DNA of 32,000 nucleotides from Shewanella sp. GD04112 (GCF_029835735.1 NZ_JAOEAL010000001.1:2470530-2502529); one strand, 5' to 3'. Positions 11,069 through 32,000 are shown, counted from the first letter of the stretch. Numbers and translations are program-made. Notes: generated by a model not told the origin, from the sequence alone.

Positions 11069-11239
11069 ATGGCTAAATCACTGAACGAACTTAGAAAGAG
11101 GCTTAAGCCACAAGTGCAATTGGCTGCTAGAGCTAAAGCAGAAGAAATTCTCGCTGAAATGAGCATGAAAGATGTGACTAAATCGCGTGGTCATAATGAG
11201 GCTACTGTCGAATTTCTGATTCCAGAAAGAAAAAATTAG
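11069..11239 (+). pseudogene. Short XRE/HigA-like antitoxin N-terminal fragment (56 codons)
   Basis: Strong SD aaggaggttattATG. MAKSLNELRKRLKPQVQLAARAKAEEILAEM resembles the N-terminal leader of HTH antitoxins, but the ORF stops before any HTH could be encoded. Confidence 0.35.
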
Positions 11240-11399
11240 TGGCAAAAGAAATGGATAAAACTAGGTAGCGAAGTAGTGGTGATTCAACCAACTTGAAATT
11301 AATTTGCCCCTTTCTTTGTTTCGCATGACCAAGTTAGCTCAGCTTGGTATTGAACCGTTGACCTAATTTTAGTAATGCTACAAGTGCCTACTGTTCTAG

Positions 11400-11812: not shown

Positions 11813-11866
11813 TCCTCCACGCTTTTTTACTCAGTTTGTTTTCACAAGCCGTAGTGGAGTTATGAA

Positions 11867-12733: not shown

Positions 12734-12759
12734 GTAATGCCTGTTTTTGCTACATGTTA

Positions 12760-12808
12760 ATGTATACAGACTATACATCAATAAAAACCACAAGTATATT
12801 GGGTATAC
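12760..12808. promoter_or_regulatory. Two GTATAC-containing palindromes in the divergent promoter region (candidate operators)
   Basis: ATGTATAcagacTATACAT (12760-12778) and GTATAttgggTATAC (12794-12808). Both lie between the WYL gene start (12733) and the operon start (12910). Confidence 0.4.
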
Positions 12809-12909
12809 CACTTACCAAACTCAACTTACTAAATTTGCGATAGAAAAATTGGTATTCGAGAAACATGGTAAAAATAGTGATCTAAAACGAGGAGCTTGCG
12901 CAGTTTCCT

Positions 12910-18000: not shown

Positions 18001-19562
18001 TCGCTGACGATTACGAGCAAGCACAAAACGATCTTGCGAAAGAAGATGGAAACGTAAGTTCATTGCGTGAGAGGCACAAACAGAAACGTGTCATGCTCGA
18101 TGAGTTGAAGGTTCAGTTGAGAGAAAGCGAAGATAAAGCACGCAAAAACAAAGAGGTACATCTTAAGCTTCAATCGGAATATTCTGTGTTAGAAGAGCAG
18201 GTTGCGGAATCAAAACGTAGTTTGTCAAAGCTGACTTACCCTTATTGCGAAGGACTCGAAAAACAACTTTCACTCGATAGCGAAACGATATCTAAACGAT
18301 TGAGAGCGGCTCAAGAGCAATGTGAATCACTCCAACTTAAGCAAGTATCATTAACCGAACGCCATAACACCCTACTCAAGCAAGTAGAATCCCTACAGAG
18401 TACATCAGTGATTGCAGAAGAGGCGCGTGAAAATGCAAATGGTATAAAGCAAAAGGTGCTGGATGCTCTGCCTGCCGGAGCCACAAAACATAAGCTAGAG
18501 CAAGAAATGGACGTCTATTTTAAACTGATGCATGAAGGTGAGGCCGTCCAATACACTAATGGGATTTACGCAATATCTGGATTGGTCAATCGCTATGGTT
18601 TGAGTCGAGATGATGAGTTCTCCCAAAAAATAAATAGTTTTAATCTAGAGGGAGGGACCACCCTGCCTAGTCTTTGCCAGCTGCATAGTGACGCTATTTC
18701 TTTGTTTCGTCGGCAAGCCCGAGGGGACATTATTCGTAGTTCCGAGCCGACAGAGATGCTTACACAATTGGATAGTGCGTGTAGTCTCGCTAGGAGAACA
18801 CTTGAAAGCGCCGAAGAGCAGTTTCTCACAGATAGAAATGAACTAGGAAATGCCATTGCCCGTCGTGTACAGGATGAGCAGAAAGCCATAAGAAGGCTAA
18901 GTGCTGAAATGATAGGAATAAGCTTTGGGCAAGTTGCGGCTATTCGTCTAGTACCTAAAAGCGTCCCTCATTTCGAAGCTACTTTGAAGGCTTTGAGAGG
19001 AAGCGACGATGTCATGGACGATCTCTTCAATAATGCTGAAGATGTAGAAGAAGCGCTCGCAACACTATATCAAAAAACCACTGGTGGCCGGATCGAGGGA
19101 GAAAAGCTGCTTGACCATAAGAACTACATCAATGTGGTAACAGAAATCCAGAGAGTTGGTAGTGAAGAATTTGAGTTATTGGATGACAAAACACTTTCAA
19201 CAGGAGAGCGAATTGGCTCTGGATTGGTTGTCTTAATAGCAATTCTAAAAAACTGGGGACGGGTCTCACATGAAAAACAACCTTTCTTAATCCCGTTAGT
19301 AATGGATGAAGCATCACGTTTGGACTCCGACGCTCAGAGAACGGTGCACCAGTTGGCGGTAAAGACCGGAAGTCAGATTGTAATTGCCGCACCTGAGTCG
19401 CAAGGAAAGATATCAGGTGTTGGCTATCAACTTGTCAGAAGTGCTTCTAAAGCAGGTAACAAAGAGAGCCGTGTAATCATTAGTGGGATCCGGGATGCTG
19501 ACAGTTTAGGGATTGATGAAGAAGCATTTATCGATTCGGTTGTGAGTGGGGCGGCGCATTGA
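15006..19562 (+). CDS. jetC: MukB-like SMC ATPase (JetC/MksB-class), 1518 aa
   Basis: - SD GGAGGA precedes ATGATG at 15006.
- N-terminal head: IKSLSLVGVNGVSARTLDL, Walker A GKNGSGKTT (15141-15167), ALLPD.
- Very long coiled coils.
- Hinge-like VADLYSDIPLEEAGFTEAALGQLMCAIVVNDPS.
- C-terminal head: SFGQVAAIRL...LSTGERIGSG...LVMDEASRLD (D-E at 19305-19310)...QIVIAAPE...GYQLVR.
- Each motif matches MukB motifs as I recall them. Confidence 0.85.
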   Translation: MMRNYPYIKSLSLVGVNGVSARTLDLVNPHEHQTDRQYGTVVSLLGKNGSGKTTLLGTFMLALLPDIRSVSLGTSDNFTQTQKMQDAEMFERLGNPSLIGLEVVSRAGERALFIVRSERETGSRLKFDTFRVGLFDSLAPLDFLIVRNGNMVTPRTIDGIRDIAAEHGCRLQSFDKIDKYMLALFNDGILPRTFNRSNERYQLGQIFHSAMSGKRDQAIGRDLADFLMTHSRTNIKSVVDVLSGTMRKLRQTRDDLAHNSKDYAFFKELLEKSFTVSAKAWAQAEYNFSRADKEATSCRQDVSECKVSIEKSDQDLTECRSKLDTSVENRTSLEQESEQLKPRLASAVEGEIFYKQGKQASVSLLKKEAQLYESLSLSQLADEGADASRNKVEQANQDILDIQAQLADVQERFILLEKKAGQYRNAKSLLDSVKSWCGDSFELAKLKGMIEEYTAQSKQLALEADQLGNKLNSAENINEIHAKAASLIRRAGDSIDPNVAKNWFISTELRLEEERPLAVSLEQMRNGLSALKRNHRTVNRMLDRFKQAKLPRMPSNESEYQQLTEDRGEALESAKEVKASVDARYEDERHIQEELKIEVSRLKSLRTEWQNYQPAVARLYECFPDTQFTAEMLDGLIKNTQRELRSLRENNSRIESNIFSLKERILSLSNRETGSLETLQRFASDVGGVAVADLYSDIPLEEAGFTEAALGQLMCAIVVNDPSDAARTLLAEYGDNWPLPDVILMTVKNHSPDQLRSGGYDADLFFKDLSQEFVGADLDLNHNENDVPWVVLSEPFGGIRVSGVPTEPVLGKEARDKLIADLQIELNSKQTLFDSNDENISLLQSGLEQANRINVNPSLAFAVEPNVELKKQKLQQQGNKVADLYSQTLQATNRVKTLELQCSLLEQHADSSDLLDVNFDKEIMEAEEQIIRSEKAKKYVDRYGGTFSQIKQQYPKIREDYQSDIDTLKRQHQLAEQDLSNTNNRKRDLTSLNQVANHLADDYEQAQNDLAKEDGNVSSLRERHKQKRVMLDELKVQLRESEDKARKNKEVHLKLQSEYSVLEEQVAESKRSLSKLTYPYCEGLEKQLSLDSETISKRLRAAQEQCESLQLKQVSLTERHNTLLKQVESLQSTSVIAEEARENANGIKQKVLDALPAGATKHKLEQEMDVYFKLMHEGEAVQYTNGIYAISGLVNRYGLSRDDEFSQKINSFNLEGGTTLPSLCQLHSDAISLFRRQARGDIIRSSEPTEMLTQLDSACSLARRTLESAEEQFLTDRNELGNAIARRVQDEQKAIRRLSAEMIGISFGQVAAIRLVPKSVPHFEATLKALRGSDDVMDDLFNNAEDVEEALATLYQKTTGGRIEGEKLLDHKNYINVVTEIQRVGSEEFELLDDKTLSTGERIGSGLVVLIAILKNWGRVSHEKQPFLIPLVMDEASRLDSDAQRTVHQLAVKTGSQIVIAAPESQGKISGVGYQLVRSASKAGNKESRVIISGIRDADSLGIDEEAFIDSVVSGAAH

Positions 19563-20509
19563 TGCATGGACTACTGGAGGATGTAAAGTTAACACCTAAG
19601 CAGGCACTGGCACTTATTGATAAGCTTATTGAGCGCGGGAAAGTGTTGCCCAACCAGAGAGATAGTTTACTGATTGAGCGCCTTGAGCAACTTGGCATAG
19701 TGAAACGAGTGGGGAGTTACTGGCAGCTGTGTGAGCCCCAACGCATTGAGAGTGTTCGTAACCAAATAACGCAATATACTTTGCAAAAAAACAGGCCTGG
19801 TATCTTACGAAAGATGCCCGTTGTACATCATAAAAGTGCTGCTGCCTGGCGAGGACATAGCAAAAGTGGGCAAGGCGAGGCTCTTCAGAAAGGTCAACTG
19901 ATAAGTACAGACGATGTAGTACGGGTCCGCACTCAGAAGACCGGGTTCGTAATATACAGCGATAACGCCACGATTGATACTGACTTGGAGACTCTGCAAA
20001 GGACTGAAGTCAGCTTACCAGAACGGTTGTACAAAGACGCTCATGCGCCCTGTGTCGCTGGGGTAAAGTTGGTGTTGACTGTCGAAAACTTGGGCACATT
20101 TGTTGACTTCCCCATGGTGGATGGACTCGTATTGGTTTACTCATCAGGGAATAACTTTGCATCATCGGTTTGTTTTATCAAGCGCTTCTTGGAAGAGGTG
20201 ACCTGGGCACACTTCCCGGACCTTGATCCCAATGGTCTGATCATATCAACGCAAATGGCAGATACCCTCAACAAACCTTGCAATGTTTGGATTCCACCTC
20301 ATTGGGATAGGGTCCGAGCTCAGCCGCTGGTTTCTGGTAAAGGAAAAAAGGTATGGGGGGAAGCCCCTGCCTGCCCTGAAATCGCAAGTTTGCAGGAAAC
20401 AAGCCATTGGGTTGAGCAAGAGGTTCTCGTCTTAGATCAACGAAGCGTCAAAGCCGTCAGTGAGCTTGTTAGTGAGCCTAAGCTCCGGCTAATAACTCTT
20501 CAATACTAA
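19562..20509 (+). CDS. jetD: JetD/MksG-type Toprim (topoisomerase-VI-like) nuclease subunit, 315 aa
   Basis: The start overlaps the jetC stop (TGATG). Toprim signature: VLTVENLGTFVDF (Glu codon 20084-20086), WAHFPDLDPNGLII (DxD 20228-20236), then HWVEQEVL. The N-terminus looks winged-helix-like (LIDKLIERGKVL..LEQLGIVKRVGSYWQL). Confidence 0.7.
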   Translation: MHGLLEDVKLTPKQALALIDKLIERGKVLPNQRDSLLIERLEQLGIVKRVGSYWQLCEPQRIESVRNQITQYTLQKNRPGILRKMPVVHHKSAAAWRGHSKSGQGEALQKGQLISTDDVVRVRTQKTGFVIYSDNATIDTDLETLQRTEVSLPERLYKDAHAPCVAGVKLVLTVENLGTFVDFPMVDGLVLVYSSGNNFASSVCFIKRFLEEVTWAHFPDLDPNGLIISTQMADTLNKPCNVWIPPHWDRVRAQPLVSGKGKKVWGEAPACPEIASLQETSHWVEQEVLVLDQRSVKAVSELVSEPKLRLITLQY

Positions 20510-20699
20510 AGATTTTACGATTGACAGTTCAGGCGGCAGTTAATCAAACATTGTACTCGGCGAAGCTGATGTTCGTGCAGTGTGTCGACAATTCCGCTAC
20601 AGGGAAAGTCTCAATTCATTGCCTGGCGAACAATAGCCTAGCTATGCCCATAAGAAGCAGTTATCTGACTAGTTTACTTCTTAAGAATAAGGATACTTA

Positions 20700-22010
20700 A
20701 TGAGTATTGAGAAGTTTAGAAGCGTGGAGGAACTAAAACAGTTCTTCGAAGAAGGAGGTAACCCTTGGTTTGATGCAGAATTTTCTCCTCAGACTCAGAG
20801 TATCGTCGAAGCATTGGATGCAAAAGGAGCCTTTCTCAATAAGTGGTGGGTAAGGACCGCCATGGATTGGAAGTGTCCCGCCTGTAAAAGGACTAAGCCC
20901 CAAATAGCCAAACTAGATAATCGTAGATATGCCTCCTGCAAACTGGAGGAGCATCACGATCACATGAAGGATACGGTGCGCACGTTGTTCGAAGAAATAT
21001 CTTCGAACAGAGAAGTCGTTGTTGCAACTGAGCTAGCTAAGCGGTTTGCAATCAGGACGTCCTTTGCAATTTCCGCTTACGATAACACGGTGATTTGCGC
21101 GGATTGTAATAAAGCAGACGGTATTGCAAAACGGATGGTCAAAACTCACAGTGACTTTTCATACTCTCCAGCAGAAATTGGGCGATTTGTAAAACCATCA
21201 GATAATCGAGAGCATGAAATTGACGCGGATATCGCCAAGGAAATTTGGAACGAGAATCTGGAAACGTTCAATAAGCGTATGCAGTTGGCAAAAGTTATAG
21301 CGGAGTTGGCTGCCAGCGATTCACATTGGTATCAACCCTCAGAACCAACAGCCAAGCAAGTCAATGATTCTGCCAATTACAAGTTTAACTTGCGTGGATT
21401 AAGAGACCTTCACGATGATCCTGAAAAGCTTCTATACAATACAACGCCTTTCAAGGGAAACCACTCATCATGGAGATTGAATCCCAAGCCTTTCACAAGT
21501 ACGAGACCAACTGATGGACAAATAGCACATTTATCTAACACCAGGGGGCGGTACTGGAACAGGTACGACGACAGCTGGCAATGCCCATGTTGTGGTCGTT
21601 TAAAGCGGGAATGTCTTAAGCCGTCTAAAAATAACCCTTGGGTGTTTGAAGTAAAGGCCATTCTAGCTCATGATTCTGAGCATCAGTCTTTTGCTGAAGA
21701 AATTAAGGTGTGCAACGAATGTTTCAATGCTGCAAACCATCTTGGCCAGGAAGCAATAAAAGAAGCCAAAGAACAAGATGAGACGGTAGATGTATATTTT
21801 CCACATAGCTTGATACAACTGGAAGAGTTGAAGTCTGTTATAACGCCGAGATTACACTCCTCACATATCATTGATAATGACTTGGCTGAAAACGTGGTTC
21901 GCAATGCCATCAGGCGCATTATTGATGAAGACTATAACCAATCCCCAAAGCACAAGATGAAGCTGCAAGAACAGTTCAGTACAATGCTTTATGGTGGAAG
22001 TTGTGAATAG
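20700..22010 (+). CDS. Protein with two endonuclease-VII/HNH-like zinc modules (436 aa), otherwise unassigned
   Basis: SD aaggatacttaATG. Module 1: WKCPACKRTK...KLEEHHDHMKD...(about 47 aa)...VICADCNKADGIAKR. Module 2: WQCPCCGRLKREC...ILAHDSEHQSFAEEIKVCNECFNAANHLGQ. The layout CxxC...H.DH...CxxCN..(D/E)G is that of the T4 endonuclease VII branch of the HNH fold. Confidence 0.55.
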   Translation: MSIEKFRSVEELKQFFEEGGNPWFDAEFSPQTQSIVEALDAKGAFLNKWWVRTAMDWKCPACKRTKPQIAKLDNRRYASCKLEEHHDHMKDTVRTLFEEISSNREVVVATELAKRFAIRTSFAISAYDNTVICADCNKADGIAKRMVKTHSDFSYSPAEIGRFVKPSDNREHEIDADIAKEIWNENLETFNKRMQLAKVIAELAASDSHWYQPSEPTAKQVNDSANYKFNLRGLRDLHDDPEKLLYNTTPFKGNHSSWRLNPKPFTSTRPTDGQIAHLSNTRGRYWNRYDDSWQCPCCGRLKRECLKPSKNNPWVFEVKAILAHDSEHQSFAEEIKVCNECFNAANHLGQEAIKEAKEQDETVDVYFPHSLIQLEELKSVITPRLHSSHIIDNDLAENVVRNAIRRIIDEDYNQSPKHKMKLQEQFSTMLYGGSCE

Positions 22011-22164
22011 TTCAGCCTTCGCTAGACACGAATGCAGCGACTCCACTGTCTAATTTGATCAAATATTGTGAAGGTCCACTAGAACCGACTTTAAAAAAAA
22101 TCAGTGATTTATATGGGGATTACTAAAATTGGCCTTCTTTTGAGAATTACATGAGGGGAATGAA

Positions 22165-22530
<366 letters not shown>

Positions 22531-22857
22531 CTATGCCACTACACTCATATATTAGAACGTGAGAGCGTGGAGCGGATCGCTGCTCATCCTGGAAATCCGA
22601 TTGGCAATATTGTCGAACTCTGGGAAGAACAGGAAATCGGTGTGACTAAAGAAGCAAAGTTATTGAAGGTAATTGACCGCTTATTGCCATTCTTACATAA
22701 CATGACTAGCGAAGGCCAAGCTTGGAGGGATAATGGAATACATAAAGCCCAAGTGTTGAATATGCACCAATTTATCGAGAAGGAAAGTCCTGAAATTTTT
22801 TCATGGTTTGTTATACAGCTCGAATATGCCGTTGAACAAGGTTGGCTTAAAGCATGA
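22531..22857 (+). pseudogene. 3' fragment of an HD-domain (HD_3-type metal-dependent phosphohydrolase) gene
   Basis: ..IVELWEEQEIGVTKEAKLLKVIDRLLPFLHNMTSEGQAWRDNGIHKAQVLNMHQFIEKESPEIFSWFVIQLEYAVEQGWL matches the C-terminal half pattern of HD_3 proteins. The catalytic HD part is missing, and the frame is open right up to the IS3 terminus at 22530. Confidence 0.55.
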
Positions 22858-23065
22858 TCTTTCATTGGTTGTTTCTTGTCTATCCAGACTAGGCCCGTAA
22901 CTTGTCGATGCCCCATTCAAAGTTATCAACACGACTTGAGATGAGCATCACTAGCCTAATGTTGACCCAAACTAAGTAATGCGACAAAGTCCCCCTGTGT
23001 CAGGATTGTTGTCACCCCTAAATAATCATTATGTTTAAAGACAGGGTGCGGCAAAAGAGAACGAT

Positions 23066-23566
23066 ATGGCTCGGTATTCACCAGAACGTAAAGAAGCGAT
23101 CCTTAAAAAATTATTACCTCCTCACAACTTAACGGTCGCAGAGGTCGCTCGGGAAGAAGGCATCGCGGTGCAAACCTTGTATCATTGGCGAGATATTGCC
23201 AGAAAAGAAGGTCGCCCCGTGCCAGGTAAAACATTAACAGCCGATGATTGGTCGGCTGAAGCAAAACTTGCCGTGATTATTGAAACAGCGCCGCTGTCGG
23301 AAGCGGAGATAAACCAGTATTGCCGTGAAAAGGGCTTGTTCCGCGAGCAAGTACAGCAGTGGAAACAGGATTGTTTAGCTGGTTTTCAAACCTCAGAAGT
23401 ACAAACTAAAACCATTAAACAGCAGGCTAAGGCTGACAAAGCCGAAATCAAATCGCTGCAACGGGAATTGCGCTATAAGGAGAAAGCGCTGGCTGAAGCT
23501 GCTGCGTTACTGGTGCTCAGAAAAAAGCTCAATGCGCTCTGGGGGGACGACAGCGAGGAGAGCTAA
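23066..23566 (+). CDS. IS3-family transposase OrfA (HTH + leucine zipper)
   Basis: MARYSPERKEAILKKLL..LTVAEVAREEGIAVQTLYHWR is an HTH, followed by a coiled-coil tail KAEIKSLQRELRYKEKALAEAAALLVLRKKL. Confidence 0.8.
   Translation: MARYSPERKEAILKKLLPPHNLTVAEVAREEGIAVQTLYHWRDIARKEGRPVPGKTLTADDWSAEAKLAVIIETAPLSEAEINQYCREKGLFREQVQQWKQDCLAGFQTSEVQTKTIKQQAKADKAEIKSLQRELRYKEKALAEAAALLVLRKKLNALWGDDSEES
23521..23527 (+). promoter_or_regulatory. Programmed -1 ribosomal frameshift heptamer A AAA AAG
   Basis: The heptamer is in the X XXY YYZ register of orfA (codons AGA AAA AAG). The -1 frame is open from here into orfB (..AQCALGGRQRGELTPLPERIALI..). Confidence 0.7.
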
Positions 23567-23571
23567 CCCCC

Positions 23572-24621
23572 TTGCCTGAGCGCATAGCATTGATTGCCTT
23601 AATCCAAGAGGCCTATACCAATGGTGCTCGCCTTTATAAGGCTTGTGCTGAAACGGGCCTCAGTAAGCGTACCTATCGACGTTGGTATCGAGAAGGTCAA
23701 GTGCAAGCTGATTTAAGGCCAACAGCAGCTCGACCAGAGCCAGCAAATAAACTCGAAGAACATGAGCGACAACAGATATTAAGTGTGTGCAATCAAGCGG
23801 AGTACGCCAGCTTACCCCCGTCGCAAATTGTGCCAACATTATTAGATAACGGGATTTATATCGCCTCGGAATCCAGCTTCTACAGAGTGTTAAATGCTCA
23901 TGGTCAACTTAACCATCGTGGCCGCACTCAGGCTGCGGTCAATCGAAGCAAACCGTTGAGTTATCGGGCAGATGGGCCGAATCAAGTGTGGTCATGGGAC
24001 ATCACTTATTTAGCCTCAATCGTCAAAGGCCAGTTCTACTATTTGTACCTGTTTGAAGATATTTACAGTAGAAAAATAGTGGGTTACGAAGTTCATGAGC
24101 AAGAAAGTGGGGAATATGCCGCTGCGCTAATCCAACGCTGTCTGTTACGCGAGCAATGCTTTAACACGCCATTAGTGCTGCATTCTGATAATGGGGCGCC
24201 GATGAAGTCACTGACCATGAAAGCCAAGCTGGAAGAGCTTGGTATTACGGCATCATTAAGTCGGCCGCGGGTGAGTAATGACAACCCCTTTTCAGAGTCG
24301 TTATTTAAAACGTTGAAATACCGCCCACAGTGGCCGGCATCAGGTTTTAGCTGCTTAGCAACAGCAAGAGAATGGGTGGAAAAGTTTGTAACCTGGTACA
24401 ACGATGAGCATAAACACAGCCAGCTAAATTTTGTCTCACCAGGGCAACGTCATGCACTGCAAGATGGCGCTATTTTAGCGAAGCGCAAGAAAGTGCTTGA
24501 GGCGGCGAAGGAAAGAAAACCGATGCGTTGGTCTACAGAGATCAGAAATTGTGAAGCGGTTGGCGCTGTAACACTCAACCCAGATAAGGCACCAGAAGAA
24601 GGCGTAATAAATGCAGCTTAA
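23572..24621 (+). CDS. IS3-family transposase OrfB (DDE integrase core; expressed as an OrfAB fusion)
   Basis: WSWDITYL (D), LVLHSDNGAPM (D), SNDNPFSESLFKTLKYR (E); rve-type core. The frame is -1 relative to orfA. Confidence 0.8.
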   Translation: MPERIALIALIQEAYTNGARLYKACAETGLSKRTYRRWYREGQVQADLRPTAARPEPANKLEEHERQQILSVCNQAEYASLPPSQIVPTLLDNGIYIASESSFYRVLNAHGQLNHRGRTQAAVNRSKPLSYRADGPNQVWSWDITYLASIVKGQFYYLYLFEDIYSRKIVGYEVHEQESGEYAAALIQRCLLREQCFNTPLVLHSDNGAPMKSLTMKAKLEELGITASLSRPRVSNDNPFSESLFKTLKYRPQWPASGFSCLATAREWVEKFVTWYNDEHKHSQLNFVSPGQRHALQDGAILAKRKKVLEAAKERKPMRWSTEIRNCEAVGAVTLNPDKAPEEGVINAA

Positions 24622-24764
24622 TATTTAAACAAAGAGTGACAACTATCTTGAAAAACACCGAAGTCGCCGACTCTAACTATGGCGATTCTGCGCCGCTTAC
24701 TACTAATAATCATTAAGTTAATTATTCTTAAATATCTGAAAGGAAGCACCTATGATAGGCATTA

Positions 24765-25106
24765 TTGCCGATTGTCTTGGTTTACCTGGGCGTCCTACTC
24801 TTTTTAAGCCAGATTCTGCTATGGAAAATGCCTGCTGGGGGCAAGAAAACAATGGTTTCTCTGCTGCTGTTGCCGCTGCTGGCAGGCCTAAGCTTTATTG
24901 ATGAAATATGGGCCAGGCACCAGTTTCAGGCCTTATGCGCAGAAGATAATTTACTAAGCTACCAGGCGGATAAGGTCAGGGGGCAAGCGGTCAGCACCAA
25001 AGCGCTGATCCGGAACAATATCAGCGCAGCCGTGCCTATCGTTGAGCATACCCGGTACTGGTTTGTAGCTGGCACTGATGACATCGTGATCACCAGCAAA
25101 AGTTAG
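24765..25106 (+). CDS. Hypothetical small membrane protein (2 predicted TM helices); doubtful start (TTG)
   Basis: Hydrophobic N-terminus IVLVYLGVLLFLSQILLW and LLLLPLLAGLSF. It is more GC-rich than the DNA downstream. A competing ATG at 24752 with a good SD lies in another frame. The ORF ends at a TAG that is in frame with the next ORF. Confidence 0.25.
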   Translation: MPIVLVYLGVLLFLSQILLWKMPAGGKKTMVSLLLLPLLAGLSFIDEIWARHQFQALCAEDNLLSYQADKVRGQAVSTKALIRNNISAAVPIVEHTRYWFVAGTDDIVITSKS

Positions 25107-26018
25107 TTAGAAAATGGAAATTTATCTCCTCAAGATGCTGAGAAGCAATTAAGCGACATCTTAGTTCCGTTATTAAATGAAGATGGGTATAACATTGTTC
25201 AGACTCCTTTTCGCGGTGACATTGGAGTAGATTTTATTGCTGAGAAGCAACTTTCCACTAACCTAGAGCAAGTGGGAATCGAATATAAGCACTATAAATC
25301 TGCTGTAGGTGTCGATGCTGTTCGCCGGTTACTGGGAACAACATTTACTCACAACTTTGACCGTTTAATTTTAGTAACCAAATCTCGTTTTACTAAAGCT
25401 GCCCTTGAGCTTGCGAATTCGGCTTTACCAGTCAAGCTTGAACTAATTGACTTAGATGCTCTAAGAGCGTGGGTGCAGAGAGCAGAAAAAACTGAAGACT
25501 ATGACTTCGAACTAGTAAATATTATTCGTTCCAATATTAGCGAGCGGTTAGCAGTGCTAATAGCTAAAAATCCGCGATATCTAATGGATATTGAATGGAG
25601 AGAGCTTGAGTATGTTATTCAAACCGTTTTTGAAGAGCTAGGGTTCAGCGCAGAACTTACCCCAGGAAGCAAAGATGGCGGTAAAGATTTAGTGCTTACC
25701 TGTAGGATTTCTGGGCAAGATCATACATATTACGTAGAGCTGAAGCACTGGAGATCCCAACAAAAAGTAGGTGGACAAGCTGCTAGAGGTTTCCTGAAAG
25801 TGATTGTTAATGAAGAAGTGAATGGTGGGTTATTTCTTTCTTCATATGGTTATTGTGAGAATGCGTTTGAAATGTTGACTGAAATTGACAGAAAACATTT
25901 AAAGTTCGGCGATCAGAAAAAAATCGTTACATTATGTACACAATACGTTAAGTCTAAATCTGGTATTTGGTCTCCTACTAGCGGTTTATCGGAAGTATTG
26001 TTTGAACAAACTATATAA
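25107..26018 (+). pseudogene. Tandem Mrr-like (PD-(D/E)xK restriction-endonuclease fold) domain protein with no credible start for domain 1
   Basis: Domain 1: GYNIVQTPFRGDIGVDFIAEK...VGIEYKHYKS..VGVDAVRRLLG...LILVTKSRFTKAA. Domain 2: LGFSAELTPGSKDGGKDLVLT...YYVELKHWRS..VGGQAARGFL..GGLFLSSYGY. The frame is open from 25107, immediately after TAG 25104-25106. The first in-frame start (GTG 25272) falls inside the E-x-K motif of domain 1. Confidence 0.5.
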
Positions 26019-26046
26019 ATTCGCCTAACAAGGCGCTCAAGAATGA

Positions 26047-26069
26047 CAAAAAACGCTTGGCGTTTTTTG
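26047..26069. terminator. Bidirectional terminator-like palindrome (A6-stem-loop-T6)
   Basis: caaaaaacgc ttg gcgttttttg, 29 nt after the Mrr-like stop codon. The GC core of the stem is short. Confidence 0.4.
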
Positions 26070-26277
26070 CATCTTAGCTTTGCGTTAACCCATAGAAATT
26101 TTTATCCGAAAATGTCGAGTTAGAGTTAAGGCTTTAACTCGGAATTGTCCAATTACTTGATAGAGCATTTAATACAAATGAAAGAATAGGGCGGAATAAA
26201 AGTAGTCACAAAATTAGTGTTTTAAGATGCTTATTACATTGACAAATGCCATACATTTTTTACAAGGAAGCATCTTC

Positions 26278-26748
26278 ATGATATCAGTAACTTTTCACGA
26301 AAACTCGAGGCGTACACGTCAATTCAAGTCTGAAAATGGAGCTTTGAAGGCCGTATGGAAATGGCTTAAAGCAACAGAAGACGATAACGCCTATGCAGTG
26401 ATTATTGGTCCTATGTATTCTGAGCCAAGAGTCATCAAAGGCTGGCAAGAACTTCCATTCAGTGAACCTGAAAATTTAGACTTTTTGCAGACTAAGGAAT
26501 GGCGTCGACTGAGACAACAGGCCTTTGAGTTATATGGAAACTTTTGTGCCTGCTGTGGTAGAGGTCCAAAAGATGGCGTAGTGCTTCATGTAGATCATAA
26601 AAAACCTCGTTCGAAATATCCAAAACTTCAAGATGACATCAACAATCTTCAGATTCTTTGTGAAGAACACAACCAAATGAAATCCAATACATCTGAGCGC
26701 GATTGGGCTCAGTGGTGCCAAGCCAACTCTGTACGTGGCACTAAATAG
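26278..26748 (+). CDS. HNH endonuclease (small, stand-alone)
   Basis: Classical motif CACCGRGPKDGVVLHVDHKKPRSKYP....NLQILCEEHNQMKSN. The ATG at 26278 follows aaggaag; the track start at 26227 is less likely. Confidence 0.8.
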   Translation: MISVTFHENSRRTRQFKSENGALKAVWKWLKATEDDNAYAVIIGPMYSEPRVIKGWQELPFSEPENLDFLQTKEWRRLRQQAFELYGNFCACCGRGPKDGVVLHVDHKKPRSKYPKLQDDINNLQILCEEHNQMKSNTSERDWAQWCQANSVRGTK

Positions 26749-26834
26749 TCCAACACAAGGGTTAGTGAGGCACGGGCACGTGTCGAAGTATTCATAAATC
26801 AGAGCGACTGTTGTTATAAACACTCAGACACAAA

Positions 26835-26904
26835 ATTCTCACGTATTTCAGAATAGAGCACCTAAATCAGAATAGTGAGAACATTCTGATTCTCAGTGAG
26901 AATT
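26835..26904. repeat. Cluster of the same about 24-bp units as at 10436-10537, here in opposed orientations (mini-palindromic block)
   Basis: attctcacgtatttcagaatagagc (26835-26859, + orientation). atcagaatagtgagaac is a partial copy. cattctgattctcagtgagaat (26882-26903) is in inverted orientation and is part of IR-R. Confidence 0.8.
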
Positions 26905-26908
26905 GTCA
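26882..26908 (-). repeat. Right terminal inverted repeat (IR-R) of the accessory segment
   Basis: Its reverse complement, TGACAATTCTCACTGAGAATCAGAATG, matches 10431-10457 at 25/27. It ends ..CA at 26907-26908 and is followed by CGCA (26909-26912), the same tetranucleotide that precedes IR-L. Confidence 0.8.
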
Positions 26909-26944
26909 CGCATAGGGAATAGTGCTTTCCATATTTACTCACAT

Positions 26945-27178
26945 TCAATTTAACATAATATACATTGTGCGCATCCTTTTTTTTGAGGAATGTTCACACA
27001 GCCTTTTTGAGTCGGCCAGTATTAAGAGAACGTGCCATATAGGGAACATGATCACGATTGAGACATAGAACTCAGCCATAGATTTAAACTCAATTTCAGA
27101 TTCAATAGGAACCCAAAGAGTAACTTTAGTTAGACCAGAGGCGCGCTTCTTAGCTTCATACTTAGAGTTGCGACTCAT
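26945..27178 (-). CDS. Small ORF with a ribbon-helix-helix-like N-terminus whose 3' end reads through dif
   Basis: MSRNSKYEAKKRASGLTKVTLWVPIESEIEFKSMAEF resembles RHH/DUF3018-type small regulators. The last about 10 codons (..KKRMRTMYIMLN) are encoded by the dif sequence itself. Confidence 0.4.
   Translation of the reverse strand: MSRNSKYEAKKRASGLTKVTLWVPIESEIEFKSMAEFYVSIVIMFPIWHVLLILADSKRLCEHSSKKRMRTMYIMLN
26948..26975 (-). other. dif: dif site (XerC/XerD chromosome-dimer resolution site), doubling as the prophage junction
   Basis: The plus strand reads ATTTAACATAA TATACA TTGTGCGCATC. The reverse complement of E. coli dif (GGTGCGCATAATGTATATTATGTTAAAT, from memory) is ATTTAACATAATATACATTATGCGCACC, giving 26/28 identity. 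Confidence 0.8.
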
Positions 27179-27348
27179 GGCGTCACCAGTGACGGGGCAT
27201 TCTTAGCACCTTCAACAGGTATCAACTCGCAAAAGGAATTAATAAAATCGAAATAAGTGTTATGAGTATAGATAACACCGAGAGCAAAACCTAAGAAAAC
27301 AAAAACAAGTAAAACAAAAACAACAAAAAGTATTTCTTGAATATCCAT
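27175..27348 (-). CDS. Small phage membrane protein (57 aa)
   Basis: One strongly hydrophobic helix (ILFVVFVLLVFVFLGFALGVIY). ATG 27348 follows ggag. It overlaps the next ORF start (ATGA-type). Confidence 0.35.
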   Translation of the reverse strand: MDIQEILFVVFVLLVFVFLGFALGVIYTHNTYFDFINSFCELIPVEGAKNAPSLVTP

Positions 27349-27368
27349 AAATATAATCTCCAATTATT

Positions 27369-27400
27369 GGGAGGGGGCGCTCCGCTTGCCTCCCCCTCCC
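27369..27400 (-). terminator. GC-rich hairpin immediately after the zot-like stop codon
   Basis: gggaggggg (27369-27377) pairs with ccccctccc (27392-27400) across a 14-nt loop. There is no clean U tract on the minus strand, so a terminator or attenuator role is tentative. Confidence 0.35.
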
Positions 27401-28740
27401 TACCTATTTGCAAGCGAGTATTCACGGTCAGATTGATTAGTTTCAGGTTTGACCTTAATCAAGGGCTGACAAGTGATAAAAGTAGTAAAGTCATTAAATT
27501 TAAGTCTGGCTAAACATTCAGTTATAGGTGAGACAACAAATCCAACCGAACTAGGTAAAAAAACCTCATCAGTAACGGGATTGTAAAAGGAATAATCATA
27601 ATGAACTAAGCCATTGGATTTTTTTACATACTGGGAACCTGAAATATAAACATCCTTTGTAGCATCAGAAACGAACTTAGTTAAAAGCTGTGTTTCAGCA
27701 TCATCAAGTAAAGATGATGATTTAGGCAAAAGAGAAACTTTTGACTTGGGCTCATTAGGGGATGCAGTCTCAGGCGTTTGGAGAACTGAGTCAGGGACAG
27801 CAGAGGTTTTATCAAAAAACAATGTATTGGCAAATGAGTAAACAGAAAAAACAACAACAAAAATAAGAATAATCAAAATATAAAATATCTTGGGCATCTT
27901 AAATTTATGGGTATGCAGTTCAGCACTAAAATAAGAGCCATAGAAATTCGTTGGCCTCTTAATTAATGACTTTTGGCAATTTTTGACATCGTGATAATCA
28001 TCAACATCAAAACTTTTTGAGTTCTGATAACGAGCGACACGGTTAGAGTTAAACGCATTATGATAGTGAACATGGCGATTGACTAAACGCCTTACGTTAC
28101 TATCTAAAAGCATTCTATCCTGTGTAATTAAATGTATATCGTAACCATCATGGCGGTGAGTCTCAAATTTTGAAATATGAGGTGGAACTGTAGAACCCAC
28201 AGGACGAGGCGGGAAAAATTGCTGACACTCATCAATTAGGATAATGCTCTGCTTTGGTAGATTGAACCAATCCTTAGGGTTAGCAAAATGAGTAAAATGT
28301 AAATTCAAGTGCTCAAGGTGTGAGAACTCAACCTTATCGTAAGGCATATTGCTTAGGAACTCATCAAGCAGAGCCGTCTGCTTTGATGAATAAAGTTTTT
28401 TAACCCAAAACAGCCAAGTGTCTAGATGGTTGGCCGTATTGTAATAAGGCTCAAGCCAAGGAACGTCAGACAGTTGAATCAAATCACCGTTATCGTGAAC
28501 CCGTTTGATAATTTTACGAATGCGCTTTAGTGCCTGTTTGTTCTTCAAACGGTACATATAAAGACCGTAGAACCAGCCAGAAAAACTAGAGGCAACCTCA
28601 AAATCAAGCATCAACAACTTGATGTTATTATAAAAAATTGGCCTAGTGCCATTATTAGCGCCAACAAGATAAGCAATGGTATTCAGCGATTTAGACGCGC
28701 CCGGCTTCCCTGTAACTAACTCTAACATTATGCGCTCCAA
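27400..28740 (-). CDS. Zot/pI-like phage assembly ATPase
   Basis: N-terminal P-loop ELVTGKPGASKS, a Walker-B-like IILIDECQQFF, a single central TM helix (IFYILIILIFVVVFSVYSF), then a periplasmic C-terminal domain. This is the architecture of filamentous-phage gene I/Zot proteins. Confidence 0.8.
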   Translation of the reverse strand: MERIMLELVTGKPGASKSLNTIAYLVGANNGTRPIFYNNIKLLMLDFEVASSFSGWFYGLYMYRLKNKQALKRIRKIIKRVHDNGDLIQLSDVPWLEPYYNTANHLDTWLFWVKKLYSSKQTALLDEFLSNMPYDKVEFSHLEHLNLHFTHFANPKDWFNLPKQSIILIDECQQFFPPRPVGSTVPPHISKFETHRHDGYDIHLITQDRMLLDSNVRRLVNRHVHYHNAFNSNRVARYQNSKSFDVDDYHDVKNCQKSLIKRPTNFYGSYFSAELHTHKFKMPKIFYILIILIFVVVFSVYSFANTLFFDKTSAVPDSVLQTPETASPNEPKSKVSLLPKSSSLLDDAETQLLTKFVSDATKDVYISGSQYVKKSNGLVHYDYSFYNPVTDEVFLPSSVGFVVSPITECLARLKFNDFTTFITCQPLIKVKPETNQSDREYSLANR

Positions 28741-29078
28741 TCAACAGGTGATTTGTCGCCCGGCTTACGCCAAACAAGCTGCCTAGAGTAGCCGCTTTTG
28801 GAGACTCCTTTTAATACCATAAGCGCAACGCCGCTAGACATTGCAATATTTAAAGCCGTATCAATCCCAAGTAGGTGAATAAAAGTGGCTATATGAGGAA
28901 ATATAATTGAAGATGCAGAAGCATTTAAACGGTTAATTATTTCGTCAAAAATAAAACCTACTCCCGCATAAGTAACTGTACCAAAGCCAATAGCAACACC
29001 AATACGAGCAACAGAAGCGGTAATAAATTGACCAAGGAAAGGAAAAATAGAAGCAAGTAATAAAGGTATGAATTGCAT
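28728..29078 (-). CDS. pVI-like minor coat/membrane protein
   Basis: 116-aa polytopic hydrophobic protein located between the pIII-like and Zot-like genes, with overlapping stop/start. Assignment is positional only. Confidence 0.5.
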   Translation of the reverse strand: MQFIPLLLASIFPFLGQFITASVARIGVAIGFGTVTYAGVGFIFDEIINRLNASASSIIFPHIATFIHLLGIDTALNIAMSSGVALMVLKGVSKSGYSRQLVWRKPGDKSPVDWSA

Positions 29079-29087
29079 ATTTACCCC

Positions 29088-30659
29088 TTAGTGATATTTG
29101 ACAATCATTAAACCAGAAGCAACAGAAGCAAACGCAATTAAGAAGAACTTAATAACAGTTGCCAAGTCACAGAATGGTGATAAGTCGATAGTAAAGGTGG
29201 TAATTTTGGCATCAACAACATAAGGAGGTGGACAGGTATCAGAACCACCAAAATTAACACCGTTAGAAGAATTGTAATGCTCAGTAAATTGTTTTATGTC
29301 TACAGTGCCAGCATCTAAATTTTTAATATCAGAATCTTCACTATTTATAAAATCAGTAAGTGAATTTGTGGCAGCATTAACAGATTCAGAGGCAGAAAGT
29401 TCATCGGCAATAGTTTTACAACGGGACTCCCACTCCTTACGAGCGATATAGCATTGTGGGCTATTGGTAGAGCATACAAAAGTTTCGCAACCGTTCTCAG
29501 TAATAGCATCAGGGTCAGAGCCAGAGCCATCGCCAATCTTTCCAATGGCATCGACAATACTTTGCTCGGATTTACCAATAGCGCCTTCAATATCACGCAT
29601 ACGAACAGCAATATCTGTAAGGTTACTGTTTGCATCTAAAAGCTGCTCGACAACATCGGAATTATCAGAAGATGCACCACCAACAGAGCCTTTAATATCG
29701 GACAGAGTACTATTTACTTTCATTAACTCATTATATTGAGCCATCATCATTTCTAGCTTCTGCATTTCGAGTTGTAAGTCACCACCACCACCTCCACCTC
29801 CACCTTGAGCAATACGGCCTAATAAATCAGTAATAGTATTTGAAAGAGTATTATTTATAGCAGGGATTGAGGCAGAATTATTATTTATATTAGAAGAATC
29901 GGAGCTAATTTGACCTAACTTGTCTGCCATATAACCCAAAACTTGCATATATTCACCAGTAGAAGATGAACCGCCGCCAGATTGGGCTTTAATAGAATCT
30001 CGAATTTCAGCTAGGATAACTTGATTCTGTGAAACCCATTGCGTTTGGTATTGAATATCCGAGCGAACGCCACTCACACCACTGGCAAGAGCATTGCCTA
30101 AACCATCGGTACGATTAATTAAATCAGTGAACTGGTTAAAGTTCTGCCATCTTAATTGGTCAATAGATGTTTTAGTGTAAGAGGATTGTCTCGCACCCTT
30201 TAAAAGTGCGTCATAAATAACGCCTAAATCCGTGTGAATATCCTTAAGTTCAGTTGTAAAAGTAGTTGGCACCCAAGGATAAGGCGATAAGTTATCAGAA
30301 CTAGGGTCGGGAAAATTTGGGTTAGGATTTAGGTCAGGGTCTGGATTAGTACCACCGCCTCCGTCTTGACAGTTGTTAACGTCAGTTTCAAAGTAAACCA
30401 TCCAAACAGTGCAAAATGGGTTTTGCGGGTCGCCAGTTGCACAAACTAAATTTGTGCCCTTCCATGAAAAATCGTTTGAATCACATTGGGTATGGAAAAA
30501 AGCATTAGCGTCAGACTCAGCAGTAGCGCCAGTAAAATCAAAGGAAATTTCAACGCCAGGAGTTGCAGGTGGGGAATAAGCGAACGCAGGAGAACTTAAA
30601 CAAGCTAAAAGAAGATACGCCGCACGCAATCTGTAAGAACGAGAAGGACTAAAAGCCAT
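29088..30659 (-). CDS. pIII-like adsorption/minor coat protein
   Basis: Signal peptide ..LLACLSSPAFA. Cys-containing N-terminal domain. Pro/Asn/Asp-rich linker (GGGTNPDPDLNPNPNFPDPS). A Gly8 run. C-terminal membrane anchor (FFLIAFASVASGLMIVKY). It sits directly after the major coat gene. Confidence 0.65.
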   Translation of the reverse strand: MAFSPSRSYRLRAAYLLLACLSSPAFAYSPPATPGVEISFDFTGATAESDANAFFHTQCDSNDFSWKGTNLVCATGDPQNPFCTVWMVYFETDVNNCQDGGGGTNPDPDLNPNPNFPDPSSDNLSPYPWVPTTFTTELKDIHTDLGVIYDALLKGARQSSYTKTSIDQLRWQNFNQFTDLINRTDGLGNALASGVSGVRSDIQYQTQWVSQNQVILAEIRDSIKAQSGGGSSSTGEYMQVLGYMADKLGQISSDSSNINNNSASIPAINNTLSNTITDLLGRIAQGGGGGGGGDLQLEMQKLEMMMAQYNELMKVNSTLSDIKGSVGGASSDNSDVVEQLLDANSNLTDIAVRMRDIEGAIGKSEQSIVDAIGKIGDGSGSDPDAITENGCETFVCSTNSPQCYIARKEWESRCKTIADELSASESVNAATNSLTDFINSEDSDIKNLDAGTVDIKQFTEHYNSSNGVNFGGSDTCPPPYVVDAKITTFTIDLSPFCDLATVIKFFLIAFASVASGLMIVKYH

Positions 30660-30729
30660 ATTAAATCCTGTAATGTGATAAGCATAAAACCCCTAAGGAG
30701 GGGCAAGCCCCTCACAGAGAAAACGACTA

Positions 30730-30933
30730 TTAGCCGAAGATTGCGCCTTTAGCCCATTTAAAAACGACCGCGATAGCAGCAAGGCCAAGCATGGCACCAC
30801 CGACAGCAGTTAACGCAGCAGAACCATCGGTAGTAATCGCTGTTGTAGCAGCAGTCACATCGATAGCAGCACTAGCAGAAGAAGCAGCAACGGCAGAACC
30901 TAAAGCCACAGCGGATACAAGGTACTTTTTCAT
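30730..30933 (-). CDS. Major coat protein (pVIII/Cep-like)
   Basis: 67 aa. Signal peptide MKKYLVSAVALGSAVAASSASA. The mature part of about 45 aa has an acidic/neutral N-terminus, a hydrophobic core and a basic C-terminus (..VVFKWAKGAIFG). Confidence 0.8.
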   Translation of the reverse strand: MKKYLVSAVALGSAVAASSASAAIDVTAATTAITTDGSAALTAVGGAMLGLAAIAVVFKWAKGAIFG

Positions 30934-30948
30934 AAATCACCTATTTAG

Positions 30949-31164
30949 TTAGAAGCCGATTTGACGGCGGACGAGTTTTATAACAAATGCAATTGCGTAG
31001 AGTCCCGCAATAGCACTAAACAAAGCAAAGACCTCGGGCTGAGTGATTTGATTATCAAGCTGTTTAGCTTCAACAAGTAGATAACCGTCACAAGGGTCAG
31101 CGGTAGATACCTGTAAAAGAGTACCGCTTAGGCCGTTGGGAACCTCAACAACACAGAGAGCCAT
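30949..31164 (-). CDS. Small hydrophobic phage protein (pVII/pIX-position minor coat candidate)
   Basis: 71 aa with a C-terminal TM helix (VFALFSAIAGLYAIAFVIKLV). Assignment is positional only. Confidence 0.4.
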   Translation of the reverse strand: MALCVVEVPNGLSGTLLQVSTADPCDGYLLVEAKQLDNQITQPEVFALFSAIAGLYAIAFVIKLVRRQIGF

Positions 31165-31176
31165 TGCTTTGAATCC

Positions 31177-31497
31177 TTACGCCTTGCGAACAGCAGTAGG
31201 CGCTTCAAAAAGATGGAAGCCGTTAATAGAAACGTGCTTGCCTTCAGCATTAGCAAAAGACAATTCTTTATATTCGATTGAAAGAGTAATCCGCTGGTCA
31301 ACGGAAGCCTTCAAAGTCTCAATAGTTTTATTATCTTTTACAAGAGCCTCTGAAACATGAACATCTAATATCTGTGAAGGTGAAGATGCTAAAAAACGGA
31401 AAACACCAACATCAACAGATTCACCAGTCTGGTAATTTTTGATTTTTGGTTTAATTTGAATATCAGTTAAATCGGGGATTCTGCCTTCAATTTTCAT
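31177..31497 (-). CDS. Candidate ssDNA-binding protein (gene V position)
   Basis: 106-aa soluble, beta-rich-looking ORF immediately downstream of the replication gene, with SD aaaggaaatacaaaATG. Assigned by size and position only. Confidence 0.45.
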   Translation of the reverse strand: MKIEGRIPDLTDIQIKPKIKNYQTGESVDVGVFRFLASSPSQILDVHVSEALVKDNKTIETLKASVDQRITLSIEYKELSFANAEGKHVSINGFHLFEAPTAVRKA

Positions 31498-31556
31498 TTT
31501 GTATTTCCTTTCAGTTAAAAAAATGGGTCGGGACAGTTATTGACACGAGTCCAAGG

Positions 31557-32000
31557 CTAATGTCGAAACACCATAGCGCTCGCTTCGCTCGCTGGTGTTT
31601 CATCATTAGCTAAAGCATCAAGCCATAAAGCTTGCATTTCTTCATACTCCTGCACATGGCGCTCATATTCGGCATAGTCCTGTTCGGCCATACGTTGATA
31701 TTCGCGCTCCATTTCGAGAATGTCGAAAATATCAACAACGCCAGACATGACTTGCTTACGGGCTGCTATGTACTCCTCTTTGTTGACAAGCTTCCAATTT
31801 TTGAAGCGGGTAGCCTTGAAAACGCCGTGAAAAAGAACGCCATTAACGCGAGCGTGAGCAGCATCGCCATAGCGGGTTTTTGCATGTTCTGGCGCATCAA
31901 AAAGTTTGGAGATAACCGCGGGAACGGCATAATGGGTTTTTACAGTTTGGTCGGCGCGGCGAACAAAAATACCGCCCATGGCCATGCAGAAAGCGCCCCA
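31557..32000 (-). CDS. Phage replication-initiation protein (gene II/RstA-like), C-terminal part only; 5' end lies outside the window
   Basis: The minus-strand frame is open from the window edge (..WGAFCMAMGGIFVRRADQ..) to the stop at 31557. It is the first gene of the phage module. Assignment is mostly positional. Confidence 0.45.
   Translation of the reverse strand, partial: WGAFCMAMGGIFVRRADQTVKTHYAVPAVISKLFDAPEHAKTRYGDAAHARVNGVLFHGVFKATRFKNWKLVNKEEYIAARKQVMSGVVDIFDILEMEREYQRMAEQDYAEYERHVQEYEEMQALWLDALANDETPASEASAMVFRH

Follow-up and report, generated by a model that had tools for sequence, protein, structure and literature searches.

Repeat arrays at the ends of a defence island beside dif in Shewanella sp. 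GD04112 probably mark a non-autonomous transposon of a rare Tn7-like clade

The DNA analysed in this study, referred to below as the window, is a stretch of 32,000 nucleotides from Shewanella sp. GD04112 (GCF_029835735.1, NZ_JAOEAL010000001.1:2470530-2502529). A formate dehydrogenase operon, the last gene of which, fdhE, ends at 10120, lies upstream of a defence-gene island of 16,478 bp (10431-26908, plus strand), and the island is followed by the chromosomal dif site (26948-26975, minus strand; GATGCGCACAATGTATATTATGTTAAAT), which has its XerD arm toward the island and is the presumed determinant of the attachment site. Both ends of the island carry an array of a short repeat, which was first noticed in an initial annotation made from the sequence alone. 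The arrays are interpreted here, at a probability of about 85%, as the left and right ends of a transposon of a rare, divergent Tn7-like clade. The copy in the window, with TG...CA termini and cargo only, would be non-autonomous, the family would home beside dif by means of TniQ, and the heptamers of the arrays would be TnsB sites.

Clusters of the heptamer ATTCTSA/TSAGAAT were confined in the window to 10436-10533 and 26835-26903. The left-end array (10431-10537, plus strand) starts with a terminal site (TGAAAATTCTCACCGAGAATCAGAATG, 10431-10457), in which a full site of the form ATTCTCAC CGAGAA TCAGAAT occupies 10436-10456 on the plus strand, and it continues with two partial sites (AAATCAGATAG at about 10470-10480 and TCAGAAT at 10493-10499) and an inner full site (ATTCTCAC ATAAA TCAGAAT, 10514-10533). 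The right-end array (26832-26908, minus strand) holds an inner full site (ATTCTCAC GTATT TCAGAAT, 26835-26854), a middle site (TCAGAATAGTGAGAAC, 26867-26881, which reads TCAGAAT-A-GTGAGAAC) and an inverted full copy (26883-26903, minus strand) lying in the terminal site (26882-26908; reverse complement, TGACAATTCTCACTGAGAATCAGAATG). All copies that the initial annotation had listed at both ends were present, and the layout that it had described, spaced at the left and packed and opposed at the right, proved to be that of the two ends of a genuine insertion. The unit is a near-palindrome of two inverted ATTCTSA half-sites 6-7 bp apart, and "direct" and "inverted" copies are therefore less distinct than they appear. 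The 21-mer ATTCTCACN6TCAGAAT, with up to 2 mismatches, occurred 2 times in the 32 kb, once per end (10436-10456 on the plus strand and 26883-26903 on the minus strand), against an expectation of 0.04, and the heptamer TSAGAAT occurred 20 times against 10.8 expected, with 11 of the 20 falling within the two blocks. Furthermore, the densest 100-bp cluster held 6 heptamers, the maximum across 500 Markov simulations being 2, and the outermost copies formed the top inverted repeat of the region (30 nt, 90%, 10428-10457 versus 26882-26911). Elsewhere than at element ends, no heptamer cluster was found in the window or in the loci examined, except for two three-heptamer clusters at chance-match loci (L008 and L014), and the ten empty-site loci had 0.

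The boundaries of the insertion were given by related strains. A look-up of the FdnH protein yielded ten loci, in several of which fdhE is followed directly by the dif region. Two of them (L015 and L019) have an empty site reading ...TTAGA CGCA TAGGG..., with a single CGCA, in the uninterrupted sequence ...TTGGGCGGACAATTAGACGCATAGGGAATGATAGC...ATTTAACATAATATACATTG..., and strains with an identical FdnH protein have the unbroken site ...GGACAATTAGACGCATAGGGAAT...dif. In the window this site is split by TGAAAATTC...GAATTGTCA, with CGCA doubled, and the junctions read ...TTAGACGCA/TGAAAATTCTCAC...GTGAGAATTGTCA/CGCATAGGG... (a slash marks each boundary). Comparison of the empty sites with these junctions therefore delimited the element to 10431-26908, with TG...CA termini and with the two copies of the 4-bp target-site duplication CGCA at 10427-10430 and 26909-26912. 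The duplication can be extended to 6 bp solely through overlap with the terminal T and A, and the terminal inverted repeat bounding the element is 27-30 nt long. The empty sites in related Shewanella establish that the two blocks are the ends of a genuine insertion. Moreover, since the island is missing in strains with an identical FdnH, its arrival in this lineage was recent, through transposition that preceded the loss of the tns genes or else through recombination of conserved flanks. The host flank at 10412-10422 (GGGCGGACAAT) contains what we take to be an 11-nt match to the Tn7 terminus; as an element end it was rejected, because it is host DNA that occurs in the empty sites, and the match could be due to chance or be a relic of another Tn7-type end.

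The dif site adjoining the right end differs from E. coli dif at 2 positions, a match of which 0 are expected by chance, and no other dif-like site occurs in the window. The cumulative GC skew peaks at about 28 kb in the window, and the counterpart locus in Shewanella sp. ANA-3, which has an identical small protein and the same gene order, maps to the terminus region of a 4.97-Mb chromosome, at about 2.52 Mb, with the midpoint about 33 kb away. Between the right terminus and dif there are 39 bp of host spacer (26909-26947), which are present in the empty sites. The terminal 21-mer was scanned in one genome per species (185,579 species), and a metagenome scan was added. Three of the nine genome matches were genuine (Shewanella mangrovi, Shewanella sp. 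ES07-05 and Neiella marina), as was one of the three metagenome matches (contig L013); the other 6 of 9 and 2 of 3 were rejected as single chance matches in unrelated taxa or in coding sequence. The 21-mer was not found in viral contigs, and a blastn search of a plasmid collection with both ends and the left interior returned the IS3 remnant of the island and chance-level matches only. The initial annotation had allowed for a generic repeat scattered over many unrelated intergenic sites; the species genomes instead gave three non-chance matches, each beside dif.

In 6 of 6 contexts, the last being an element on chromosome II of Pseudoalteromonas spongiae described below, the right end is directed toward the XerD arm in a fixed orientation and at 36-44 bp from it. 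The spacer measures 39 bp in the window and in L013, 40 bp in Shewanella sp. ES07-05, 36 bp in S. mangrovi, 38 bp in N. marina and 44 bp on P. spongiae chromosome II. No gaps were needed to align the right-end array of the window with the right ends of Neiella and of four Shewanella contexts, and small ones sufficed for the P. spongiae right end. In the alignment the right block and dif were conserved, the spacers were unrelated in sequence, and the conserved block ended abruptly at ...TCA or ...CCA. The independence of these cases is supported by the unrelated spacers and by the Neiella and Pseudoalteromonas examples. A conserved block and a conserved dif with unrelated spacers between them are the mark of selection for a constant distance from a site that is recognised, and not of a sequence-specific crossover. 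TniQ/TnsD-type selectors, acting via TnsC, place Tn7-like elements, including Tn7 itself and the CRISPR-associated transposons (CAST), at a fixed distance and orientation from a recognised sequence, and the spacing of 36-44 bp from the XerD arm fits this placement mechanism. The family thus probably uses TniQ to home next to dif.

The position of the island also brings to mind an integrative mobile element exploiting Xer (IMEX), which XerCD would have integrated at dif, with the right block serving as an accessory sequence like those of cer or psi. Such an origin would agree with the distance of 39 bp between the right block and dif and with the filamentous prophage, a classic IMEX, that lies across the same dif, relatives likewise carrying such prophages there. 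However, the window has a single dif-like site, with none at the left boundary, and at the junctions there are inverted repeats, outside which 4 bp of non-dif sequence are duplicated. The empty site retains the spacer as host DNA, so that the spacer lies outside the element, and among the products of the autonomous relatives transposition proteins were identified, but neither a recombinase nor an Xer activator. Integration by XerCD is accordingly regarded as very improbable.

A second explanation was raised by the initial annotation, namely that the right block alone is a MITE-like element (MITE, miniature inverted-repeat transposable element); it would then be a small palindromic element unrelated to the left block. 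The right block is indeed an imperfect 70-nt palindrome whose single-stranded DNA folding beat 200 of 200 shuffles (z = -4.05), but this strong hairpin results from the opposed half-sites. The block has no target duplication of its own and no dispersed copies were seen; it never occurred away from an element end, and the non-chance matches to the 21-mer, in three genomes and one metagenome contig, all lie beside dif. Furthermore, the left terminus, at a distance of 16.4 kb, is the inverted-repeat partner of its outermost 27 nt, and the block corresponds column for column to the right ends of full-length autonomous transposons. The proposal of a separate MITE is therefore scarcely credible. In addition, a scan of the right block showed neither a terminator-like nor a promoter-like site.

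The transposon reading is carried further by complete relatives with the same ends. The Neiella marina element, which was reached via two protein look-ups, is 20.7 kb long (L042 1453-22112). Its left end starts with TGGTTATTCGCACTGAGAACCAGAACAG..., its sub-sites lie at +57, +78 and +91 from the terminal site, which are the identical offsets to those in the window, and the 4 bp TTAC are duplicated exactly on either side of the element. The cargo comprises a DUF4011 helicase, a DUF2130 protein, SIR2-HerA and Septu. The element on P. spongiae chromosome II is complete at 12.2 kb (L051 4484-16712), with the termini TGGTGATTC...GAATCACCA, the duplication CGTC and MC5/CTD9 as cargo, and its dif-like site lies about 20 kb from the replicon midpoint. 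All three complete elements thus have TG...CA termini and a 4-bp duplication (CGCA, TTAC and CGTC).

The Neiella and P. spongiae elements carry one operon in common, which in Neiella adjoins the left end, is transcribed toward that end and has five main genes. The first product considered is a TnsA-like protein of 226 aa (220-237 aa in relatives, encoded upstream of TnsB). The sole PDB matches of its profile were TnsA chains, nearly full length and with weak E-values of 0.04-0.075; the Pfam TnsA_N match was also weak (E 0.11), and the pattern E...D...(D/E)xK is conserved. TnsB appears in two pieces. Its N-terminal domain is a separate protein of 166 aa (150-166 aa in the clade) that matches the first ~145 residues of ~650-aa rve/Mu-type transposases (hhalign 97%, E 1e-10), and its core is a protein of 533 aa (~510-535 aa in the clade) that has no Pfam match. 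The profile of the core matched the TnsB of the type V-K CAST (ShCAST) in PDB at E 1e-6 and rve/Mu-transpos_C proteins by hhalign at E 2.5e-43, and residues D107, D196 and E232 are invariant. The remaining two proteins are a TniB/TnsC of 304 aa (Pfam TniB 4e-16; VchTnsC in PDB 1e-6) and a TniQ/TnsD of 649 aa (Pfam TniQ 2e-12; ShTniQ 5e-9 and TnsD 2e-3 in PDB). TniB and TniQ are present in Neiella, P. spongiae and four metagenomic relatives, and the operon recurs in every relative examined. The TnsB-core family is rare: a word-indexed search of 5.8 billion protein clusters returned three members, and a full HMMER search over 1.84 billion representatives returned 14 at E<=1e-30 and 202 at E<=1e-3.

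The ends follow this transposase. In the metagenomic contig L044, the TnsB of which is 33% identical, six ATTCTCA/TGAGAAT heptamers lie at the end that its tns operon faces. A more distantly related member of the TnsB-core clade (L054 15130-15260) has a different terminal repeat, of the ATGATAATGAAAT / TCATTATCAT type. The heptamer is therefore not shared by the whole of the wider clade, and divergence of the end motifs appears to have accompanied that of the transposase. The arrays co-vary with a TnsB-type transposase and occur only in its company, they mark exact junctions, and their asymmetry is kept from one genus to another. They are most simply read as TnsB-binding sites, and on sequence grounds this is their most likely nature, as in Tn7. 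The suggestion in the initial annotation of sub-terminal, transposase-binding-type repeats of a Tn7-, Mu- or Tn5053-type element is thus supported by the empty site, by the target duplication and by relatives that encode TnsA-like, TnsB, TniB and TniQ proteins, the binding itself being predicted from sequence. The co-localisation with a transposase family that it had proposed to look for was found as well, the same end architecture accompanying tnsA/B/C/tniQ-type genes in the full-length relatives. Its objection that the same-orientation copy at the right end does not fit a Tn7-style end was correct in part: the copy is real and departs from classical Tn7, but it is a trait of the family and does not speak against a transposon end, since it is kept in the autonomous elements of Neiella and Pseudoalteromonas.

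Two further origins of the ends were weighed against these relatives. TGA...TCA termini and 3-4-bp duplications are typical of the IS3 family, one of the insertion sequence (IS) families, and the island has TGA...TCA termini and a 4-bp duplication, with an IS3 element and an IS3 orfA remnant inside it; the termini might then be IS3-family-type ends, moved by the resident IS3 transposase (23066-24621) or a related one. However, the inverted repeats of the resident IS3 (~23000-23015 and 24636-24651; T..TCARGATWGTTGTCAC) are unrelated to the termini of the island, IS3 elements have neither sub-terminal site arrays nor fixed-distance targeting, and the relatives with the same ends carry TnsB, TniB and TniQ and no IS3, which leaves this origin highly unlikely. 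The near-palindromic unit is also sized like the operators of dimeric helix-turn-helix proteins, and the arrays could on that account be operators for a regulator of the island such as BrxR, or else a generic host repeat with an incidental position at the edges. Very little weight is given to this explanation, because the arrays mark exact insertion junctions, are absent from the empty-site genomes and are kept in elements with wholly different cargo (Septu and SIR2-HerA in Neiella; MC5/CTD9 in P. spongiae).

A working mechanism for the Tn7-like transposon may be outlined as follows. The heptamers, mostly paired as near-palindromes of ~21 bp, would be the sites of the clade's TnsB-type DDE transposase, which would act as an N-terminal DNA-binding protein of ~150-166 aa together with a catalytic core of ~510-535 aa. 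The spread sites at the left and the packed, opposed sites at the right would tell the two ends apart and thereby impose a single insertion orientation. The large TniQ/TnsD-type selector would read dif, or dif bound by XerD, and would recruit the TniB/TnsC ATPase, after which TnsB and the TnsA-like nuclease would join the element 36-44 bp outside the XerD arm, with the right end toward dif, a 4-bp duplication being made and dif being left intact. The copy in the window has kept both ends and carries only defence cargo and IS3. Neither Tn7-, Mu- nor Tn5053-type genes were found in the window by Pfam, NCBIfam and PADLOC, and neither tblastn with the Neiella Tns proteins nor tblastx detected tns remnants there. 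As it has no transposition genes, the window copy is non-autonomous and could presumably move only if another source provided the proteins in trans or if its conserved flanks recombined homologously. The route by which the tns genes were lost we infer from position: a remnant of an IS3-family orfA (11426-11804, with a 79-aa open reading frame at 11523-11762 on the minus strand) occupies the place of the tns operon in the autonomous relatives, which is compatible with deletion of the tns module but is no proof of it.

Several observations weigh against this interpretation and keep its probability below certainty. The window element has no genes or detectable remnants for a TnsB-type DDE protein, TniB/TnsC or TniQ/TnsD, TnsA being likewise absent, and its membership of the clade therefore rests on its ends, target duplication and location. 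That TnsB binds the heptamers and that TniQ recognises dif are both predictions drawn from anatomy and from homology. TnsA could be assigned only weakly (E 0.04-0.1), and an AlphaFold2 model of the TnsB core, built from a 3-sequence alignment, was unusable, with a pLDDT (predicted local distance difference test) of 33. The right ends in Shewanella share neighbouring cargo DNA and so are not fully independent events, and the dif-like site of P. spongiae has a poor XerC arm, being accepted on its perfect XerD arm and near-midpoint position. Moreover, three features differ from Tn7: Tn7 makes a 5-bp duplication, whereas it is 4 bp here; its termini are TGT...ACA, whereas they are TGA/TGG...CA here; and it has one site orientation per end, whereas the sites here are near-palindromic and the right end holds both orientations.

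A broader proposal is put forward tentatively, at slightly less than an even chance, that these elements form an undescribed clade of Tn7-like "dif hunters". In such a clade TniQ/TnsD would read dif, possibly as the XerD-dif complex rather than as bare DNA, and would deliver cargo about 40 bp outside the XerD arm with a split TnsB, a 4-bp stagger and near-palindromic sites, while serial insertion would build defence islands at the terminus. The reading of a XerD-dif nucleoprotein complex would parallel the reading of resolvase-res complexes by Tn5053. Four surveys do not mention dif as an attachment site of Tn7-like elements (PMC10293859, PMC8649781, PMC11014353, PMC12452197), and no TniQ or Tn7-like element targeting dif was found in the literature searched, the coverage of which was incomplete, so that "undescribed" holds within it.

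Several observations concern the relatives and their surroundings. Downstream of tniQ, four clade members encode a small Xre_MbcA_ParS_C-like protein (L042 3622-3846; L044 5929-6285; L048 5126-5479; L051 14528-14743), which is a candidate for an extra component or a regulator of the transposition module. A degenerate right-end-like block (TCAGAATAGAAGGCGTAACTCAGAACGGTAGGCCGTTCTGAGTTCTACGTAGAATCTCCA, L042 1381-1441) lies 12 bp outside the left end of the Neiella element, which suggests tandem accretion, a later insertion having displaced an older element from dif. On the XerC-arm side of dif in Neiella (L042 22438-25823 / L025 12121-20747) there is a type I restriction-modification system with an embedded SIR2-HerA pair; defence genes thus occur on this side too, and both flanks of dif are defence islands. 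A Septu homologue in S. oncorhynchi (L027/L028) was considered as a relative and rejected, since it has no end arrays and is unrelated.

The cargo of the window element consists largely of defence genes. Following the orfA remnant, a BrxR/WYL regulator is encoded at 11867-12811 on the minus strand (Pfam WYL 3.8e-14; the identical gene in L001 gave WHD_BrxR and BrxR_CTD matches), and a Wadjet/Mks-type condensin defence operon with JetA/MukF-like, JetB/MksE, JetC/MukB-like and JetD genes occupies 12910-20509 on the plus strand. A cargo protein of 436 aa (20700-22010, plus strand) was matched by nothing in Pfam, NCBIfam or PADLOC; given its two CxxC...CxxC motifs and its EEHHDH stretch, it may be a duplicated zinc-ribbon or HNH-like nuclease accompanying Wadjet. 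The IS3-family element is complete and extends from about 22996 to 24655 (orfA 23066-23566 and orfB 23572-24621), with its inverted repeats near 23000-23015 and 24636-24651, and is joined by an Mrr_cat restriction nuclease (25272-26018, plus strand), an HNH nuclease (26227-26748, plus strand) and, elsewhere among the cargo, an HD-domain fragment. Remnants of the HNH-gene DNA are still joined to the right end in S. mangrovi and in metagenome contig L013. Three Shewanella contexts share a conserved stretch of about 100 bp between the HNH stop codon and the right array (26750-26830). It is missing from Neiella, has been deleted in L013 and had no Rfam match, and it probably represents 3' untranslated sequence that was inherited rather than a functional component of the end. 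Rfam and tRNA scans of the window were empty.

Beyond dif, on its XerC-arm side, the window holds a filamentous, inovirus-type prophage (27000-32000, minus strand), which lies directly past dif and encodes Zot, a DUF2523 protein and a 523-aa pIII-like open reading frame; it is likely to be a Xer-integrated IMEX. The related strains L019 and L022 have one or two tandem filamentous prophages at the same dif. In other related Shewanella loci (L015 12835-14410; L016-L018, L020, L021, L023 and L024), a conserved tyrosine recombinase of 431 aa (Phage_integrase) adjoins dif on this side, its stop codon being about 36 bp from dif, and is followed by a 72-aa open reading frame.

If the interpretation holds, it would bear on several questions. 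The dif site is among the most conserved non-coding sequences of bacterial chromosomes, and a Tn7-like selector that homes beside it would be a targeting module for a nearly universal "safe harbour"; a protein-bound recombination site would also be added to the attachment sites of the Tn7 family. At least some islands at the replication terminus, including the BrxR-Wadjet island of the window and the Septu/SIR2-HerA island of Neiella, would be explained as transposon cargo, and serial insertion beside dif would be one way in which defence islands build up at the terminus. The split TnsB, the 4-bp stagger and the palindromic sites would offer mechanistic contrasts with the Tn7 transposase. For annotation, end arrays alone could assign islands without a transposase to a transposon family.

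Among the closest known systems are the Tn7-like transposons, whose TnsD/TniQ-directed attachment sites include glmS, comM, parE, nrdB and tRNA genes, and the machinery and logic of the elements described here are Tn7-like. The autonomous relatives share with them a tentatively assigned TnsA-like protein, a TnsB-type DDE transposase, a TniB/TnsC AAA+ protein and a large TniQ/TnsD; asymmetric ends with multiple sites, which are spaced out on the left and crowded on the right, and an inverted repeat made by the terminal sites; orientation-specific insertion a short, constant distance away from a conserved target that is left intact, the right end being nearest to it; and a defence-rich cargo. 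The decayed right-end-like block beside the Neiella left end hints at the tandem accretion at the attachment site that is also seen in that group. In contrast, Tn7 uses attachment sites at gene ends, whereas dif is a non-coding recombination site bound by XerCD. Further differences from Tn7 are the two-part TnsB, the core of which escapes the Pfam rve models, the outward transcription of a tns operon placed at the end opposite the attachment site and, in the window, the absence of any tns genes.

The Tn5053/Tn402 "res hunters" use TniA/TniB/TniQ-type machinery to target a recombination site that serves in dimer resolution, and this type of machinery and, probably, the targeting of such a site are shared with the elements described here. 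However, Tn5053 has the TniR resolvase with a res site, no TnsA, 25-bp inverted repeats, 5-bp duplications and res targets on plasmids or transposons, whereas the autonomous relatives here have a TnsA-like gene and a chromosomal dif target; a serine resolvase was found in neither the gene tables nor the Pfam scans of the Neiella and P. spongiae elements. The IMEX, represented by the CTX, VGJ and TLC phages and the gonococcal genetic island, likewise occupy the dif locus and accumulate there, but they integrate into dif by Xer and have dif-like flanks, whereas the element described here has a 4-bp duplication at its flanks and would transpose to a place next to dif. In the literature, the nearest counterparts that target dif are the ISAjo2-type members of the IS1202 family, which have been described as "dif/pdif hunters" (Harmer, Pong & Hall 2023, PMC10132070). 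Like the elements described here, they have a DDE transposase resembling TnsB, carry at each end one more, internal copy of the terminal repeat, and insert in a specific orientation beside dif or dif-like sites. The IS1202 elements are insertion sequences of 1.5 kb with a single transposase of 441-457 aa, no TnsC or TniQ, TGT...ACA ends and mostly 5-bp duplications, and they insert 3-5 bp from the XerC arm (PMC10132070), whereas the elements described here are 12-21 kb long, encode TniB and TniQ in their autonomous forms and lie 36-44 bp from the XerD arm.

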